The notes beneath the pieces were generated by a model. It was given only the letters and a program-made list of their open reading frames with translations. It was not told the DNA's origin and did no database searches. Shown piece after piece: positions 23,945-58,404 of a stretch of 64,000 bases of DNA (positions within the stretch are counted from its first letter, which is position 1; each line of letters begins with the position of its first letter). The DNA is from a virus. A program made the position numbers and the translations under genes. Location of the stretch: the UHGV virus genome UHGV-1364441, one strand, 5' to 3'.

Positions 23945-25606
23945 ATGAGTGAGGCAGAAGCCCGCCCGACTAACTTTATTCGTCAGATCATCGATGAAGA
24001 TCTGGCAAGTGGTAAGCACACCACAGTACATACCCGTTTCCCGCCGGAACCGAATGGCTATCTGCATATTGGTCATGCGAAATCTATCTGCCTGAACTTC
24101 GGGATCGCCCAGGACTATAAAGGCCAGTGCAACCTGCGTTTCGACGACACTAACCCGGTAAAAGAAGATATCGAGTACGTCGAGTCGATTAAAAACGACG
24201 TTGAATGGTTAGGTTTTCACTGGTCTGGTAACGTCCGTTACTCCTCCGATTATTTTGATCAGCTCCACGCCTATGCTGTTGAACTGATCAACAAAGGCCT
24301 GGCGTATGTTGACGAACTGACGCCGGAACAGATCCGCGAATACCGCGGCACCCTGACGCAGCCGGGTAAAAACAGCCCGTACCGCGATCGCAGCGTTGAA
24401 GAGAACCTGGCGCTGTTCGAAAAAATGCGTGCCGGTGGTTTTGAAGAAGGTAAAGCCTGCCTGCGTGCGAAAATCGACATGGCGTCGCCGTTTATCGTGA
24501 TGCGCGATCCGGTGCTGTACCGCATTAAGTTTGCTGAACACCACCAGACTGGCAACAAGTGGTGCATCTACCCGATGTACGACTTCACCCACTGCATCAG
24601 CGATGCGCTGGAAGGTATTACGCACTCTCTGTGTACGCTTGAGTTCCAGGACAACCGTCGCCTGTACGACTGGGTGCTGGACAACATCACCATTCCTGTT
24701 CACCCGCGCCAGTACGAATTCTCGCGCCTGAATCTGGAATACACTGTGATGTCCAAGCGTAAGCTGAACCTGCTGGTGACCGACAAGCACGTTGAAGGCT
24801 GGGATGACCCGCGTATGCCGACCATTTCCGGTCTGCGTCGTCGTGGTTACACTGCGGCTTCTATTCGTGAGTTCTGCAAACGCATCGGCGTGACCAAGCA
24901 GGACAACACCATTGAGATGGCGTCGCTGGAATCCTGCATCCGTGAAGATCTCAACGAAAATGCGCCGCGCGCAATGGCGGTTATCGATCCGGTGAAACTG
25001 GTCATCGAAAACTATCAGGGAGAAGGCGAAATGGTCACCATGCCGAACCATCCAAACAAACCGGAAATGGGTAGCCGTCAGGTGCCGTTTAGCGGTGAGA
25101 TTTGGATCGACCGCGCCGATTTCCGAGAAGAAGCTAACAAGCAGTACAAACGTCTGGTGCTGGGTAAAGAAGTGCGTCTGCGTAATGCTTACGTCATTAA
25201 GGCTGAACGCGTGGAGAAAGATGCCGAAGGCAATATCACCACCATCTTCTGTACTTATGACGCCGACACCTTAAGCAAAGATCCGGCAGATGGTCGTAAA
25301 GTGAAAGGCGTTATTCACTGGGTGAGCGCGGCACATGCGCTGCCGGTTGAAATCCGCCTGTACGATCGTCTGTTCAGCGTGCCGAACCCAGGTGCTGCTG
25401 ATGATTTCCTGTCGGTGATTAACCCGGAATCGCTGGTGATCAAACAGGGTTTTGCTGAACCGTCGCTGAAAGAAGCGGTAGCGGGTAAAGCATTCCAGTT
25501 TGAGCGTGAAGGTTATTTCTGCCTCGACAGCCGCCATTCTACGGCGGAAAAACCGGTATTTAACCGCACCGTTGGGCTGCGTGATACCTGGGCGAAGTTA
25601 GGTTAA
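23945..25606 (+). CDS. glnS: glutaminyl-tRNA synthetase
   Basis: 553-aa protein with class I HIGH ([12 protein letters not shown]) and VMSKR motifs; matches enterobacterial GlnRS essentially end to end from memory; own promoter-like upstream region and terminator. Confidence 0.95.
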
Positions 25607-25632: not shown

Positions 25633-25656
25633 AACGCCGCTACTGCGGCGTTTTTT
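25633..25656. terminator. bidirectional rho-independent terminator between convergent glnS and dam-like genes
   Basis: aacgccgc-tact-gcggcgtt flanked by A-run upstream and T-run downstream. Confidence 0.7.
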
Positions 25657-26560
25657 ACTTCATTATTGCAATTATATCGTTAGCAACTACACGTGTTGAC
25701 GCCTTGCAGGACACCGACCGTCTGGCTGCCATATGATGTACTTTAAACCCGTTTCCTTCATATAGTTCACGGATGTTTGGCGCACCACTATTTGTTATCA
25801 CTACCTTAGCGCCGCGCTGGTGGGCTTCCACCAATAGAGATACCAGCCGTTTCTGTTCGTCGAAACGGAAGCTATTTCCTGAATAACTGGTAAACCCTTC
25901 TGTATCCGGCAGCGGTTCATACGGCGGATCGCAAAAAATCACATCGCCTTCACCAGCCGCCTCGATGACGCCAGCAAAGTCACCTGATACAAAGGACGTG
26001 TTTTTGAGTACGTCATCAGCCAAAAATGCCTCCATCTCTGCATGTGGGAAGTAGGGCGCTTTGTATTTGCCATACCCCACGTTGAACTCGCCATTTTGGT
26101 TGTACCGCGTTACGCCATTAAAACAGTGCCGATTAAGGTACAAAAAGGCGGCAGCATGATGTAGCTGGTCATACTTTCCTCTGTTAAATGCCTCACGCAC
26201 TTCGAGGTAAGCGTCAGCGTTGTTGTAATTTTTGAAAAAACTATATGACAGCGTGACGAGCGAATGTCCTTCTCGCTGCAATGTCTGATAGAAGTTAATC
26301 AGGTCACCGTTAATATCATTAAGCAGGTTGTGGCGAAATCCTGCATTCGTAAATACGGAACCGCCACCAACGAATGGTTCTATTAACCGCTTACCGTGTG
26401 GTAGATGCTCAAGCACTGTAGGCAATTCTGAGAATTTACCACCTACCCATTTGAATATCGGACGCTCATATTCATCCGGAGTCCGAATGGTGCGCATATA
26501 GCTAATTTCAGCCATCGTATCCTGTTTTTCTATGGCTATGCGTGCTATAGATTTACTCAT
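25655..26560 (-). CDS. dam: Dam-like DNA adenine methyltransferase
   Basis: FKWVGGK and DPPY motifs, collinear with E. coli Dam; start placed at MSKSIAR (AAGGGGG RBS, overlaps stop of upstream ORF); ORF track starts 26656. Confidence 0.8.
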   Translation of the reverse strand: MSKSIARIAIEKQDTMAEISYMRTIRTPDEYERPIFKWVGGKFSELPTVLEHLPHGKRLIEPFVGGGSVFTNAGFRHNLLNDINGDLINFYQTLQREGHSLVTLSYSFFKNYNNADAYLEVREAFNRGKYDQLHHAAAFLYLNRHCFNGVTRYNQNGEFNVGYGKYKAPYFPHAEMEAFLADDVLKNTSFVSGDFAGVIEAAGEGDVIFCDPPYEPLPDTEGFTSYSGNSFRFDEQKRLVSLLVEAHQRGAKVVITNSGAPNIRELYEGNGFKVHHMAARRSVSCKASTRVVANDIIAIMK

Positions 26561-27305
26561 AGAGCACCCCCTTATTCGCTTCGAAAACTGCCTTTGCGAA
26601 TCCATGTGGAGTAGCACTTCGAAAATTAGCCCTGTCAGGCCCTGGTGGCGCGGCATGGATTCTGTTATCTGGCTTGCCTAATGATTCGTCCATTAGGGCA
26701 TCAGGCATGACAAAGCCCTGGCCGCTCCAGAGGCATGTTTTTTTGGTGTAGTTATCTTCCTGACAATATGCAGTGAAGAAGTAAGGGTGAAAGATGTGAT
26801 CTGGCTTACGCCAGAATGTCGATATTTTGCTGACCGGATTTTCAATCATGTACGGACAACCGATCATCTTTGCAATGTCATAACACTGCCAGACAACCTG
26901 CATTGCTTTGAACTGGAAAACCGGATCTTTATTAGCCTTGTCCGAAAACCAGCGCGCGCCGGAAACAGCCAGGTCAGTACACGGTGGGAACCCGGCCAGA
27001 AACACGATGCGCTGCAAATTCTTACGGAGAAAAGCGTATACTTCATCGCTATCGATGATCGCACTAATACGCGTCAGAACGGCACCTGATTGCATCCGCT
27101 CGTCACTGGTCGATAAGTGCTGTGGATCGACGATAGCGGCATCGACACCGTATTCCAGCCAGGGGGCAACCATTGCCCCCGTAAAATCACAAAGACTCAC
27201 AACAAGCGGTCGGTTATTATCGTTCTGCTTCACCGCCAATGGCCTCCACCAGCGCGTTAAACAGTGCAGATAATTCGCCCGTAAAGAGCACGAAATCAGC
27301 ATCAA
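26553..27305 (-). CDS. short C5 cytosine methyltransferase-like protein (start uncertain)
   Basis: Motif I-like DFTGAM, PC motif GFPPC, ENV-like ENPV; only ~215-250 aa so lacks an obvious target-recognition domain; ATG start would overlap rdgC by ~88 nt, alternative GTG near 27200. Confidence 0.5.
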
Positions 27306-53054: not shown

Positions 53055-54083
53055 TTACGAATCCATCAGGCGGCTATTAGCCCCCACAGACACGCCACCA
53101 CGGCGAAGATACCGCATAAGTGTTTCCGGTTTCTTCCAGGTTCCTTCCTGCATGATCTCCACCATAGACACCTGCTTTTCAGCCATATCAATAGCGGCCC
53201 CGACGCGTGCACTATGCCCGGTCCACGTCCGGTATCTTCCTTTGTTTGGCGTAGCATCTCTTTTATTCAGCAACACCCAGGCGTCGCTGAATATTTTCTC
53301 CATTGCAGGTGCAGTAAGGGGCGTTGTCGTGATCCTGGCCTTATTGCTACGGTGTATCGGCGGGAACAGCACTGCGTCAGGATGTTCGCGAAGCCCGGAA
53401 ACATCCAGCCAGTCATTCAGCACAGCGGTAGTGCGACGGGAAAGCACCTTATCAAGCCCGGCGGCGGTCGTTATTGTCTTCGTGTGTGAAATATGTAGCG
53501 TGACAGTGTCACCTGTTTGGTCCAGATCTCCTACACGAATACGCGAGATTTCCGACATACGCATCAGCGTATTGTATGCAACAAAGAGAAAAGCCCGGTT
53601 GCGCAGATCCACCAGCCGTTCTGACCTGGACAACAGGACGTCGAGCAGTTTCAGATCGTCCCACCGCAGCGGTATAGCCTGGCCTGTTCGTTCGCCTTTT
53701 TCAGTTGCCGCTTCGCGCCGGATGCGCCGCATAGCCAGAGAAACACTTTTATCATCCGAAAGTGGCGGAAGGCCACAATGCGAAAGCAGCATGTTCAGCA
53801 TGGCGTAGTGCTTATCAATGGTGGTCGAAGCCAGATCGGCATCATGCAGCTGAAGAAAATACTCGCGGGCCATTTCTGGTGAGATCGGAAACCAGGCAAG
53901 CTGGCGAGCGTGACACCAGCGCGCCCAGGAATGAAACACCAAACGGAGGTCGCGCAGAGTATTCGGCGCATAAGCTCCCTGGTCATTCATGAACCGCATA
54001 AAGTTTTCTGCGGCTTCCTGGTACTCTTTGCCAATGTTGCGCAGAAAACCACCGGAACTGCCAGAGATAATTAATTCACTCAT
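53055..54083 (-). CDS. cre: Cre-like tyrosine recombinase
   Basis: Collinear with P1 Cre as recalled: WFP..PE..R.Y.L.L, SVSLAMRRIRRE, RMSEISRIRVGDL, HISHTKT, WTGHSARVGAAIDMA, EIMQEGTW; catalytic R-H-R-Y context retained. Confidence 0.85.
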   Translation of the reverse strand: MSELIISGSSGGFLRNIGKEYQEAAENFMRFMNDQGAYAPNTLRDLRLVFHSWARWCHARQLAWFPISPEMAREYFLQLHDADLASTTIDKHYAMLNMLLSHCGLPPLSDDKSVSLAMRRIRREAATEKGERTGQAIPLRWDDLKLLDVLLSRSERLVDLRNRAFLFVAYNTLMRMSEISRIRVGDLDQTGDTVTLHISHTKTITTAAGLDKVLSRRTTAVLNDWLDVSGLREHPDAVLFPPIHRSNKARITTTPLTAPAMEKIFSDAWVLLNKRDATPNKGRYRTWTGHSARVGAAIDMAEKQVSMVEIMQEGTWKKPETLMRYLRRGGVSVGANSRLMDS

Positions 54084-54439
54084 GAAACTATTTAACCTCT
54101 ATATACAGATGACGCTACGCGAAAAATATAAAAATGACAGGGTAGCTATAAGTTAATTTTCAAGATTCAAGCCTTTGATTCGAGGCACGTATTTTCAGTG
54201 ATGTCAATACTGATCATCTACCCATGATTATAGCCTAACTTTAAATAATGCCAATTATCTAAAGTTAGAAATTTAGGAATTTTTTTTCTTTCCGCGCAGA
54301 TGGGCAATGCATTGCTGGTGTGGGCTTTAAGTTATGCCTGGCAGTTTTTAAGCAGAATTTTCTAAATTGGATGATAAAAAAATGCATCTTGATCCTTTAC
54401 TCACCCTGTTATTCGGCATAGATTTGTCATAGTAATTTT

Positions 54440-54468: not shown

Positions 54469-55506
54469 ATGAGTAAGAAGTCGATCGAGAAAGAGTACAA
54501 ACGGTTCCTGCAAACCGCTGAACGGTGGAAAGAGCTGGTGGTCGCAAACTCTGTTTTCCATGATACCAGTTATTCCGGCGAGGAATTCCGCCATGTTGCA
54601 CTAACACATGATCAGAATGTGCTAGAAGAAGCTGAAAAGTGCCTCACAGAATGGAAAGCCTTTGTTGACTTGTGCCGTAACGCTGACGGCAAAGCGTCTA
54701 ACATTGTTGAGTCTGTATATTCTCCGATCCCATTCATTATCGAGGACACAAATCAAAGCACGCATATTGTTGTGCAAAGCGCGACCACCACCCGCTCATT
54801 TACGCGCGAAAATCTGCTCAAAAAATATGATGCAATTATAAAGAAAAGCCTGAAAAACAAGATATTTTCGCAGATTGTTGGTGCACTTGAAGAAGAGCGC
54901 CGTTTTTTCGCATCAGAACCTGAAGGGGAAGTTTACCGGGCGCGCAAAGATGGATACACAGATGTAGTGCTTACAACAAACATTGAAGGCAGCAATGCTC
55001 TGTCACGATTCAGGGTAGGCGCACACGGAGCCTTAGTGTTCGCAAAACTTCCGAACACCACAGTGCCCGTTGTTAATAATGTCGGCGAACGTCGCAGCAT
55101 TACTATTTATTCTGGGGTTGAGTCGATACCTTGCGGCCTGCTTGGTGACTTTAGTCTCTATCGCGTTCGCGATCTGGAGAAACACCAACCAAGCTATGTT
55201 GCGAAGTCATACATCTTGCGAAACATCGACATCCGCAATGAGAGCTTAAAGAACAAATCAGCCAAAATGCTTGAGGAAGCCGATCCGGCTATTCGCCATA
55301 TCATTGAGCGTAAAATACAGACAGCACGCGAAGCGATGGCGCGACTGAATAAAATGGATCTGGAGTTGTTAGACGTAATGATGACATCCGGAGATGACCT
55401 GACAGGCATAAAACTGACAGACGCGCGGAAAAGATACGGTAAAACCATAGAAGAACGTTACGGGTTCACTTTCTCCCAAACACAGCACGCCGCTAAACTC
55501 TGGTAA
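54469..55506 (+). CDS. hypothetical protein (candidate regulator in the pacB-cre interval)
   Basis: 345-aa ORF with operator motifs in its own promoter; no family recognised. Confidence 0.45.
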   Translation: MSKKSIEKEYKRFLQTAERWKELVVANSVFHDTSYSGEEFRHVALTHDQNVLEEAEKCLTEWKAFVDLCRNADGKASNIVESVYSPIPFIIEDTNQSTHIVVQSATTTRSFTRENLLKKYDAIIKKSLKNKIFSQIVGALEEERRFFASEPEGEVYRARKDGYTDVVLTTNIEGSNALSRFRVGAHGALVFAKLPNTTVPVVNNVGERRSITIYSGVESIPCGLLGDFSLYRVRDLEKHQPSYVAKSYILRNIDIRNESLKNKSAKMLEEADPAIRHIIERKIQTAREAMARLNKMDLELLDVMMTSGDDLTGIKLTDARKRYGKTIEERYGFTFSQTQHAAKLW

Positions 55507-55531: not shown

Positions 55532-57040
55532 TTATATATCCAGATCTGGCATTTCCACATCTGCAAGAACCTGATCGCGGAAGGTAGCCATTTCAGCGCC
55601 GATATCTTCATTAGCAGGAACATAGTCCACCAGCATTGTAAAGCAGTAGGTATCCCATCGGTCAGGTGATTTGATGTTCAGCTTTTGCCGCATGTGCTCC
55701 TTGCGCATCATCGCCATCTTCCCTTCTTCATTAAGTAAAAAGGGGATTTTTGACGCTTGCTCTGCCGTTTTAGGGTCACTGTCTATTCGCATACGACCTG
55801 ACTTTATGGCATCACGAGCCATAATATTTGCGTAGGCACGCTGGTTAACAAAACGCTCCTTGTCTTTGTTCGAAAACATGGGTTTCCCCCACCGAATCCG
55901 TACCGGATTAGCCCCACGGCGCACCAGCTGCGCACAGGTATCTGAACCAAAACCGTCTGCGTCAACCGCGATTGTAATATTCGGGTATTTATCCGGCGTG
56001 CATTCGTTGTATATAAAGTCAGCAAAAGCCAGCGGGTCCATAGTCCCTGGCATTTCCATTACCTTAAAGTTAACAACACGCCGCTTTTCCCGGTGACCAG
56101 ACACTTTACAGATATTAAGAACTGACTTGTCTCGCCCGTTACCAACGTCAGCAGTAGCCACCCATCCCCAGTTTTTCTCCAACAACACCTTGCGCCGCGC
56201 AGCGCGATCGCATTCATCACGACCAAGCAAATAGCCGTTAATCTCCCGAGGAAACTGACCAAGAACCTTGACCATGTACTCAATAGAATCGCGCCCGCCA
56301 TATTCCAGGAGTTTCTGCCTGATGAATTGTGGTGTGACGAACGGTGATTCTTCTGAGTTAAGAACAATTGCTGTCCAGATCCCTTTCGGGTTGTCTGGGG
56401 TTTTAGCTTGAGAATGGTGCGAATCGTAGAAATAACCACTTGGCCTTGTTGGCTGGGATAGCATCAACATTCGGTTATCTTCTTCAGTCAGAGCGCCAGT
56501 CATTACGCCGATCGCTTTATCAGATATACCTGATGCTTCATCCAGAATTAGAAGCAAATGTGCCGCGTGCTCCCCCGCCAGAGCTTCTTCGTTACCGAGT
56601 CGATAGCCTTTGCAGAGAACTTCCCAGATCCCCTTTCGAGAGCGTTCATAAAACATGGTGTCAGACAGGACAAAATAGGTCTGTAACCACCCATGACGCT
56701 TAACGGCATTCGCCCAATACTGTTTAACGTATTTAAATACACCTGTCTTAACCTGACCTATTTTGTTAGCAACAATGATGACACGGGCATCGGGGAACAG
56801 AATCAAATAAATCAGCAACAACATAGCCGTTAGCGACGATTTCCCTGTACCGTGACCAGAGGTAACAGTGGTTCTGCTCCCTTTTTGCTGTACGGACTGG
56901 ATAATCTCCTGCTGCTGGTGGGAGGGAAACATCCCGAATATATCAACAACAGCCTGGGTAAAGTTGTAGCGGTATTTGATTACCATATCGCGCCAGCGTG
57001 GATCGCTGGTGACGCATTTAATCTTGCGCCCACCAGCCAT
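55532..57040 (-). CDS. pacB: terminase large subunit (PacB-like)
   Basis: Walker A GHGTGKSS, Walker B LLILDEAS, ~500 aa, directly downstream of small-subunit-like gene. Confidence 0.8.
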   Translation of the reverse strand: MAGGRKIKCVTSDPRWRDMVIKYRYNFTQAVVDIFGMFPSHQQQEIIQSVQQKGSRTTVTSGHGTGKSSLTAMLLLIYLILFPDARVIIVANKIGQVKTGVFKYVKQYWANAVKRHGWLQTYFVLSDTMFYERSRKGIWEVLCKGYRLGNEEALAGEHAAHLLLILDEASGISDKAIGVMTGALTEEDNRMLMLSQPTRPSGYFYDSHHSQAKTPDNPKGIWTAIVLNSEESPFVTPQFIRQKLLEYGGRDSIEYMVKVLGQFPREINGYLLGRDECDRAARRKVLLEKNWGWVATADVGNGRDKSVLNICKVSGHREKRRVVNFKVMEMPGTMDPLAFADFIYNECTPDKYPNITIAVDADGFGSDTCAQLVRRGANPVRIRWGKPMFSNKDKERFVNQRAYANIMARDAIKSGRMRIDSDPKTAEQASKIPFLLNEEGKMAMMRKEHMRQKLNIKSPDRWDTYCFTMLVDYVPANEDIGAEMATFRDQVLADVEMPDLDI

Positions 57041-58404
57041 TAGTCATCCTCCGGCGGTTCTATCGCAATATCATCATCTCCGGCGTCATACCCTGCATCT
57101 GATGCATCATAATCACCGTAAATTTCAGCCGTTGCCGAAGGGTCAATGTCCAACTCTTCATCGTTGGCCTCGAATTCCCCAGCCTTACGCTCGCCATTGT
57201 GGTCGTAATCTCCGCACCCCAGATCTTCAACAATGGTTGCCACATCCGCCCGGCGCTCTGCCAGCCATTGCGGATGGTTAGCCTGAAGCGATGCAAACTC
57301 CTTCGCTTCTTTGTCCAGCTGTTCATCATCAACATCATTGATGTCAGAAACTGGAGGTTCGAGAAGAGTGATAGCTTTCGCCGCGCGCGCCGCGAGGATA
57401 GCCGGGACACTGACACCCTGACGCTCGATGTATTCAGCAACACCGATATCGTCCAGCTCCTCGCGCTCACGCATACGTATAGCGGCGGCGATAACTCTGG
57501 CTGCGCGTGCGTCAGCGCCAATGCGATATTCAATCTCTTTGCCACGCTGTTCGGCCTGTAGGCGTGCTAATTCGAGTTTTTCTCTGGCCTCGGCCTCTCT
57601 GAATGCTTGCTGGCGAGCACCCTGACGAAGTTTTTCATCACCCTGTCGCAGCTTTTGTTCGGACTGATATATCGCTGCCAACCTACTGATAAAATCGTTC
57701 ATGTAGTAGGCCGCGTCACTGATTAGACCGAGAAGTCGCTGCCCAGGGTGCATTCCTTCTGGCTGTTCATCACCCAGGGCGTCTATCTCCGCCTGTAGGC
57801 GTTCGGCCTCCTGATCAACAATGCTTTGGTACTGAAGTGCGCGTTCTTGCGCCATTTGAATTGCTAACCGCAGGTGCTCTTCTGCGCCGTTCTTCATCAT
57901 GTCGCGAGCCACACTCGTAGTGGGCAACGTGGCACGCTGCACAGCACCGCCAGGGATCATTGCTGAAGATCCCTCGATTTTTGAGGCGCATTTATCTTCG
58001 GTGGGGATCATTTTCGCCATTTTTTCGCGCAATGATCTCCTGACAGATTCTTTTATCTCATTGTTATTATTTGCATTATTTTCATGATCCGAAGTTTTCT
58101 TTCTCGGCATACTTCGGAAAGAACCTGTGCCCTGTGAATTGTCAATTTCTGTAAATTTTGTTGTTTCTGTACCCTCTTCTGGTCTTTTTTTTGCTCTTCC
58201 TGCCCGTTTTTTTTGAGGTGATTTGGTGCTTTTTTTTGTAGTCTTCACCTGCGACCGCACCTCATTTTTTTTCATATTGAGATGCTTTCTGGCGGTATTG
58301 AAGCTAAGGTCGTGTTGCTCGCAGTATTCCTTTACGGTGATCCCTTTTTCTTCACGCAACGCTATAAATTTGGCGCGGTGCTCTTCCCAATTAACCAGAC
58401 TCAT
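57040..58404 (-). CDS. pacA: terminase small subunit / pac-recognition protein (PacA-like)
   Basis: N-terminal HTH-like segment, Lys-rich linker, acidic C-terminus; contains a GATC-rich pac-like cluster within its coding sequence as in P1 pacA. Confidence 0.55.
   Translation of the reverse strand: MSLVNWEEHRAKFIALREEKGITVKEYCEQHDLSFNTARKHLNMKKNEVRSQVKTTKKSTKSPQKKRAGRAKKRPEEGTETTKFTEIDNSQGTGSFRSMPRKKTSDHENNANNNNEIKESVRRSLREKMAKMIPTEDKCASKIEGSSAMIPGGAVQRATLPTTSVARDMMKNGAEEHLRLAIQMAQERALQYQSIVDQEAERLQAEIDALGDEQPEGMHPGQRLLGLISDAAYYMNDFISRLAAIYQSEQKLRQGDEKLRQGARQQAFREAEAREKLELARLQAEQRGKEIEYRIGADARAARVIAAAIRMREREELDDIGVAEYIERQGVSVPAILAARAAKAITLLEPPVSDINDVDDEQLDKEAKEFASLQANHPQWLAERRADVATIVEDLGCGDYDHNGERKAGEFEANDEELDIDPSATAEIYGDYDASDAGYDAGDDDIAIEPPEDD
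57955..58089. other. pac-like cluster of five GATC sites in TGATC(A/G)-type contexts
   Basis: GATC at 57955, 57968, 58006, 58034, 58086 within 135 bp, two on one side and three on the other of a ~35-bp core. Confidence 0.5.

Follow-up and report, generated by a model that had tools for sequence, protein, structure and literature searches.

The 64,000-nucleotide (nt) stretch of the virus genome UHGV-1364441 analyzed here (the window) carries a pacA gene, encoding pacase A or a small-terminase-like subunit, in which five GATC sites lie close together. When oriented, these sites are copies of a non-palindromic 9-mer with the consensus AATGATCCC. We consider it likely that the five copies together form the part of a putative pac site, of the type carried by Escherichia phage D6, that is recognized by the pacase (PacA/PacB). 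We propose a candidate pac site because the five GATC copies remain unchanged while the surrounding protein sequence drifts. The pacA gene (57040-58404, minus strand) is an open reading frame of 1365 bp and 454 amino acids (aa) that contains the whole candidate region, and it is 94.1% identical at the nucleotide level to the pacA of D6 (AY753669, MF356679). Its product shares about 25% aa identity with P1 PacA and matches phrog_1711 “terminase” (E=5e-178); no Pfam or NCBIfam model matched it in profile searches of the window proteins.

The GATC sites start at 57955, 57968, 58006, 58034 and 58086 and span 135 bp (57955-58089). A first-pass annotation of the window had described five GATC sites within 135 bp inside a pacA-like open reading frame, as we find, and had placed each of them in a TGATC/GATCA context, which is correct for four of the five sites and incorrect for 57968 (AGATCC/GGATCT). 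Along the pacA coding strand the copies point left, left, right, left and right, at a spacing of 52, 28, 38 and 13 bp, making up one cluster whose largest start-to-start gap is 52 bp. Copy 1 (58083-58091, plus strand; GATC at 58086-58089, pacA nt 316) reads CATGATCCG and codes for S/A/E-D-H. Copy 2 (58031-58039, plus strand; GATC at 58034-58037, nt 368) reads AATGATCTC and encodes Arg-Ser through AGA TCA in the window, where other clades have Gly-Ser (GGA TCA). Copy 3 (58004-58012, minus strand; GATC at 58006-58009, nt 396) reads AATGATCCC and codes for K-M-I-P. Copy 4 (57965-57973, plus strand; GATC at 57968-57971, nt 434) reads GAAGATCCC and encodes Gly-Ser here and Arg-Ser in other clades; it is the only copy without a TGATC context in the window’s own clade, and reads AATGATCCC or GATGATCTC in other clades. 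Copy 5 (57953-57961, minus strand; GATC at 57955-57958, nt 447) again reads AATGATCCC, is a direct repeat of copy 3, and codes for A/Q-M-I-P.

A repeat finder recovered these units independently, as GGGATCATT (twice), GATCATTGC/GCAATGATC and GGGGATCATT/AATGATCTCC, and the inverted repeat formed by copies 2 and 3 was likewise recovered independently. The heptamer ATGATCC occurs seven times in the window, with three of these occurrences in the cluster (P = 4e-4). A possible sixth copy, GGTGATCCC, lies at 58336-58344 on the plus strand (GATC at pacA nt 63), in the conserved N-terminal coding region. Its GATC is kept in all 29 D6-group sequences compared below and is absent from the E. hormaechei-type gene, but because this stretch is conserved in general, protein constraint could account for it and the copy is uncertain.

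We compared the cluster across a divergence series of pacA homologs comprising D6 (94% nt identity), plasmids of E. marmotae, S. dysenteriae and E. coli HX138 (about 75%), E. fergusonii (70%) and E. hormaechei (67% nt, 54-55% aa), together with more distant pacA genes from Pantoea, Leclercia, Citrobacter (C. freundii), E. kobei and the P1 type, and 75 IMG/VR loci. Invariance was tested on six representatives with 70-100% nt identity, and presence was counted over 29 distinct D6-group sequences. Every D6-group lineage, including the most diverged one (70% nt and 69% aa identity), has GATC at the identical pacA positions (nt 316, 368, 396, 434 and 447). All five sites are present in 27 of the 29 sequences; taken singly, copies 1, 4 and 5 keep GATC in 29/29 and copies 2 and 3 in 28/29. 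The five positions are also kept in 11 D6-like metagenome loci, which were recovered with a DNA pattern built on copies 2 and 3 (17 specified bases) and are thus biased for those two copies; the pattern was loose, and most of its hits on the metagenome contigs were random. The remaining GATC sites of pacA (nt 589, 681, 1032, 1147, 1180 and others) are not conserved and vary between lineages.

The cluster falls in a Lys/Asn-rich, poorly conserved linker of PacA (aa ~47-165), which may be disordered, judging only from its composition and poor conservation; in the codon alignment, divergence of the protein peaks at codons 91-165. Across nt 270-500, just 13% of 4-mers are invariant in the six representatives, yet all five GATC sites are (P about 4e-5 analytically and 1.5e-5 by resampling). 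The invariant runs of at least 6 nt in this interval are GGATCA, ATAACA, GATCATT, AAATGATCCC and AATGATCCC, and all but ATAACA are repeat copies: GGATCA belongs to copy 1, GATCATT to copy 2, AAATGATCCC, the longest invariant run of the linker, to copy 3, and AATGATCCC to copy 5.

Could the coding sequence alone have produced this pattern? The five sites occupy all three reading frames (GAT CAT once, xGA TCA twice and ATG ATC twice) and both orientations, so a peptide repeat cannot have produced the 9-mer copies, and we rejected that explanation. At copies 2 and 4, Arg and Gly (AGA/GGA) are exchanged between clades with GATC retained. The Asp codon of copy 1 is always GAT and the Ile codon of copies 3 and 5 always ATC, with the adjacent His and Pro codons varying at the third base; among codons whose amino acid is invariant, only 26-32% are identical across the six representatives. 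Judged by these comparisons, the cluster is an element conserved at the DNA level, independent of the protein.

An account without any cis function, in which the GATC sites are by-products of conserved residues (D-H, G/R-S and M-I-P) and have clustered by chance, can point to the conservation of M-I-P and D-H as amino acids and to a within-window scan statistic of P about 0.22. We regard it as highly improbable, since the same 9-mer recurs in three frames and two orientations, the Arg/Gly exchanges keep GATC, synonymous positions inside GATC are invariant where neighboring ones are saturated, all five GATC sites are conserved (P about 1e-5), and PacA clades of unrelated sequence all carry GATC clusters in the same region. 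Protein constraint or chance alone is, from these alignments, effectively excluded.

It is this conservation across homologs, rather than window statistics, that marks the cluster as more than chance. Its 135 bp is the tightest span of five GATC sites in the window, the next non-overlapping one being 253 bp, but GATC is not enriched overall (225 observed against 243.5 expected), and in uniform-placement simulations of 225 sites in 64 kb, 21.5% of the runs had five sites somewhere within at most 135 bp. The local Poisson P of the cluster is 1.4e-4, but by itself it is not significant window-wide. When pacA is taken as an a priori target, the same kind of simulation gives P = 0.0045. We rejected within-window enrichment as proof of a site.

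GATC clusters lie at pacA nt ~150-480 in every PacA clade that we examined, P1 included. Over 15 PacA representatives, again including P1, GATC density is 12-27 per kb in nt 150-480 versus 2-7 per kb elsewhere in the gene, and nearly all in-cluster sites have a TGATC context. The clusters are bipartite in all clades except the D6 group. In the Pantoea clade, a left cluster at nt 154-237 (6-7 copies, with 12-bp spacing) precedes right-hand sites at nt 363 and 379; the left and right clusters are at nt 199-255 and 338-375 in a clade represented by IMG/VR locus L064, at nt 184-268 and 369 in the L049 clade, and at nt 157/169/181 (12-bp spacing) and 380-471 in the E. hormaechei type. The Leclercia, E. 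kobei and C. freundii types, like Pantoea, have clusters in the same pacA region with an upstream cluster, in place of which the D6 group has the single copy 1. Two motif classes track the PacA phylogeny: P1-like clades have TGATCA(C), and TGATCCC is the form of the D6, E. hormaechei and L049 types (TGATCCC(C) in L049). The E. hormaechei p60214CZ_1 type uses the same AATGATCCC motif and has copies 2, 3 and 5 in common with the window, and one of its indel regions holds a rough equivalent of copy 4; it differs in lacking copy 1 and in carrying its left cluster inside a 12-nt insertion absent from the D6 group. We know of no experimental characterization of the pacA GATC clusters of these other phage-plasmids of the P1 supercluster.

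The window also encodes a candidate modifier of these sites. A 333-aa open reading frame at 25655-26656 (minus strand) matches the Dam-family (D12 class) N6-adenine DNA methyltransferases (PF02086, E=2e-56, 191.8 bits against a cut-off of 22; TIGR00571 “dam”, 248.8 bits against a cut-off of 114.85), bearing out the Dam-like methylase that the first-pass annotation had reported. The D12-class motifs FxGxG and DPPY are present, the latter at aa ~242, and the three solved relatives nearest to it, E. coli Dam (2e-58), DpnM (1e-45) and T4 Dam (1e-10), all act on GATC. In the alignment with E. coli Dam, the equivalents of K9, N120, R124 and Y138, which we take to be DNA-contacting residues of that enzyme, are kept, and L122V, P134G and R137K differ. 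Presumably this enzyme modifies the GATC cores alongside host Dam. Directly upstream of its gene, and overlapping it, lies a 250-aa open reading frame (26553-27305, minus strand) that matches no Pfam family. It may be a diverged partner of the methyltransferase, since P1 has a second methyltransferase domain fused to its Dam-like domain. Adjoining the methyltransferase gene is a full-length glutaminyl-tRNA synthetase gene (23945-25606, plus strand; PF00749/PF03950/PF20974, E=6e-130), which carries the second-densest GATC stretch of the window (four in 135 bp near 24252). The presence of glnS in D6-like elements has already been reported (PMC6799933).

The first-pass annotation had likened the cluster to the P1 pac site, a 161-bp site with seven TGATCA/G hexamers, an IHF site and proposed methylation control (PMC10028697). 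Synonymous recoding of the P1 hexamers lowers the titer about 9-fold (PMC10028697). P1 pac occupies nt 195-353 of the 1194-nt pacA gene, with four TGATCA copies (nt 195-229), three TGATCA/G copies (nt 325-348) and a cut at nt 276-285 (midpoint 279); in the P1 record NC_005856, the features for the IHF site and the cut lie at 90784-90813. Much of the likeness stands. Both elements lie inside pacA soon after the N-terminal domain (here nt 316-450 of 1365) with pacB directly downstream, both consist of multiple repeats with a GATC (Dam) core, and both phages encode a Dam-family methyltransferase. Each is also about 4 kb from a lox-type recombination site with pacB and c1 in between (P1 pac at 90806 and lox at 94800; here ~3.75 kb to rox). 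What does not carry over is the hexamer and the 4+3 layout. From the alignments, the D6-type element is homologous to P1 pac in place and kind, but lacks these two defining P1 features.

These differences, together with several other observations, weigh against reading the cluster as the recognition part of a pac site. P1 pac is the only relative defined by experiment. Its repeats are near-palindromic TGATCA/G hexamers, whereas the five copies here read TGATCC, TGATCT and AGATCC, with no TGATC[AG] among them on either strand. The 4 + 3 clusters of P1 (spacing about 7-15 bp) flank a ~90-bp segment with the IHF site and the cut; here there is a single cluster, and the second (left) cluster missing from the D6 group is present in its nearest outgroups (the E. 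hormaechei and L049 types) and in all TGATCA-type clades examined. Sternberg and Coulby are said to have found in 1987 that both P1 repeat clusters are needed for efficient cutting, so a one-cluster site calls for explanation. No match to the IHF consensus WATCAANNNNTTR with at most one mismatch was found in 57900-58200; this consensus is also a poor fit to the annotated P1 IHF site, so the scan has little power. Two natural variants from IMG/VR lack a site, L027 at nt 368 and L038 at nt 396, which would mean that a single copy can be spared or that the two elements are defective. By window statistics alone (P about 0.22) the cluster is weak evidence, and the GATC specificity of the methyltransferase is predicted from homology only, the enzyme scoring below the E. 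coli Dam equivalog cut-off (239.8 versus 441 bits).

One architecture, which we put forward tentatively and hold with less than even confidence, is a compact pac site made of a single cluster of five (perhaps six) AATGATCCC copies in alternating orientation. The upstream cluster would have been lost in the D6 lineage, and the pacase would engage the site with a different geometry (for example on two inverted-repeat pairs), cutting beside or inside the cluster instead of halfway between two clusters. The GATC flanks would have co-evolved with PacA (TGATCA-type versus TGATCCC-type), with the Dam-methylatable core kept as a switch.

Two places stand out as candidates for the cut. One is the 48-bp stretch, rich in A/T, that separates copies 1 and 2 (around 58040-58082) and contains the invariant hexamer ATAACA (coding strand, pacA nt 338-343; 58062-58067), also retained as AATAAAAACAAT in the E. 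hormaechei-type gene. The other is a conserved island upstream of the GATC cluster, AATTTACAgAAAtTGACAA (coding strand, pacA nt 248-266; 58139-58157), with the invariant runs AATTTACA and TGACAA. Either could hold the cut; otherwise the hexamer might be a site for an accessory protein and the island a site of bending. The functional site probably spans about 57953-58157, some 70 bp past the right boundary of the first-pass annotation. In one isolate assembly (IMG 2537562191), contig L048 ends at pacA nt 329 and contig L036 starts at nt 320, with a 10-nt overlap just 3' of copy 1 (window ~58076-58085). This break in the candidate pac region is anecdotal; it may mark a real end of the DNA or be an assembly artifact of a low-complexity stretch. 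Three A8 tracts (T8 on the plus strand) lie at ~58184-58240 (pacA nt ~165-221), 23-24 bp apart and coding for lysines, where related genes carry the upstream cluster. The DNA here may have an intrinsic bend, but other D6-group clades do not preserve these exact tracts.

The island also bears on an alternative that we judge possible but rather unlikely, in which the pac site is larger and is cut at 58139-58157, the cluster forming just its right-hand (HEX3-like) arm and the lost left arm having been replaced by a GATC-free feature such as phased A8 bending. The E. hormaechei type lends this arrangement some support, since it combines copies 2, 3, 5 and an approximate copy 4 with a left cluster, and its island (nt 262-278) is about midway between the two GATC clusters (midpoint about nt 282), like the P1 cut; the island is moreover invariant in the D6 group. 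Set against this, left-arm repeats are not detectable in the D6 group, the island is possibly conserved for the protein (x-F/L-T-x-x-D-x), and the anecdotal assembly break at nt 320-329 falls between copies 1 and 2, away from the island.

If the cluster is the pacase recognition site, it is probably under methylation (Dam) control by analogy with P1: the GATC core is kept across clades whose flanks have changed, and the element has its own Dam-family enzyme, which together fit a role for methylation itself. In this scheme, PacA would bind the AATGATCCC repeats only when their GATC adenines have been methylated by host Dam and/or the element’s enzyme, and PacB would then cut close by. From there, headful packaging would proceed across pacB and c1 in the direction of rox, which lies at a distance of 3.75 kb (4.0 kb in P1). 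This would place rox in the terminal redundancy of the first headful, which Dre could then circularize. Hemimethylated new copies would be bound and not cut, such that only a fraction of the pac sites in a concatemer would be cut. The packaging direction and the hemimethylation logic follow the P1 work of Sternberg and colleagues.

A GATC cluster need not be read by a terminase. Conserved GATC clusters also serve origins and Dam-regulated promoters, and our conservation tests show constraint at the DNA level without naming the reading protein. The cluster might then be a Dam/SeqA-type epigenetic element outside packaging, acting in the timing or sequestration of pacA/pacB expression or in a replication-linked role, with the real pac site elsewhere. 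The clusters of oriC and P1 oriR resemble ours in being dense and conserved and in having their methylation state read after replication; they differ in lying at origins and in having a reader, SeqA, that needs hemimethylated GATC only. SeqA reads bare hemimethylated GATC, whereas the flanks of the 9-mer are specific and change along the PacA phylogeny, so a sequence-specific reader such as PacA fits better. In addition, the cluster lies within pacA, at the position of the mapped P1 pac site, the same region is clustered in all PacA clades examined, and a promoter scan of the region found no sigma-70-like promoter in or near the cluster (four weak terminator-like hairpins turned up). For these reasons we think such an element improbable, and favor recognition by the pacase. 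A packaging signal embedded in the gene of its own recognizer is also known from the headful phages P22 (gene 3) and SPP1 (gene 1), which differ from the present case in having no known Dam dependence and in their unrelated sequences and terminase families.

The genes around pacA follow the P1/D6 order (pacA, pacB, lpa, c1, rox and dre), all collinear with D6. Directly downstream of pacA is pacB (55532-57040, minus strand), encoding pacase B or large terminase, the presumed nuclease-ATPase partner; it matches phrog_2 terminase large subunit (E=2e-40) and scores 21.9 bits against PF03237 Terminase_6N, slightly below the 22-bit cut-off. The c1 gene (54469-55506, plus strand) and a gene for a Dre-like tyrosine recombinase (53055-54083, minus strand) follow, the latter adjoining a rox-like recombination site (54237-54268) ~3.75 kb from the GATC cluster. 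The rox-like site, TAACTTTAAATAATGCCAATTATCTAAAGTTA, has a single mismatch to the published D6 rox (T to C in the right arm), which leaves the inverted repeat imperfect. On the other side of pacA lies lpa (58401-58793, minus strand), encoding a late promoter activator (PF25716, E=1.4e-56). The stop codon of lpa and the start codon of pacA share bases (ATGA, 58401-58404), whereas P1 has an 85-bp gap with the LPpac promoter; the overlap leaves no space for a separate late promoter, so pacA expression must be arranged unlike that of P1.

The D6-like pacA, its collinear neighbors and matches to plasmids in PLSDB identify the window, by sequence, as part of a D6-like phage-plasmid of the P1 supercluster. 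In PLSDB, 121 plasmids match the window’s pacA, mostly ~90-kb non-mobilizable plasmids from E. coli, Salmonella and Shigella. PacA of NZ_CP047663 is identical across aligned residues 1-427, and the pacA DNA of NZ_CP149812 is 99.9% identical. A tblastn search of a phage collection gave D6 as its sole match, and a PacA-alignment scan of genome contigs returned only three loci, all P1-like. ARAGORN predicted four tRNA genes at 60324-61518 (minus strand), for Met(cat), Ser(tga), Thr(tgt) and Arg(tct), whose encoded CCA ends show the strand to be minus; the D6 record annotates the collinear tRNA genes on the opposite strand and names the last one tRNA-Asn. The tRNA-Arg(UCU) decodes AGA, the rare codon at pacA repeat copy 2 (AGA TCA).

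Elements of this kind are already familiar, knowledge of the P1 pac site going back to the 1980s, and the D6-type cluster is arguably a variant architecture. The D6 GenBank records annotate no pac feature, and we found no description of a D6 pac site in the full-text literature; a mention is possible in Sauer & McDermott 2004 (NAR 32:6086), Gilcrease & Casjens 2018 (Virology 515:203) or Lobocka et al. 2004.

P1-type packaging signals decide which DNA is packaged and transduced, and E. coli, Salmonella and Shigella commonly carry D6-like phage-plasmids. P1 pac is in use for phagemids, PAC vectors and CRISPR-delivery particles (PMC10028697). A D6-type pac motif with non-P1 specificity, if real, could serve as an orthogonal packaging signal, and a defined motif would make pac-like sites and transduction hot spots predictable in host genomes and resistance plasmids. 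The L027 and L038 variants would be useful natural mutants for the dispensability of single copies. More broadly, the cluster offers a natural experiment in the evolution of what would be a methylation-gated terminase site within the coding sequence of its own reader.

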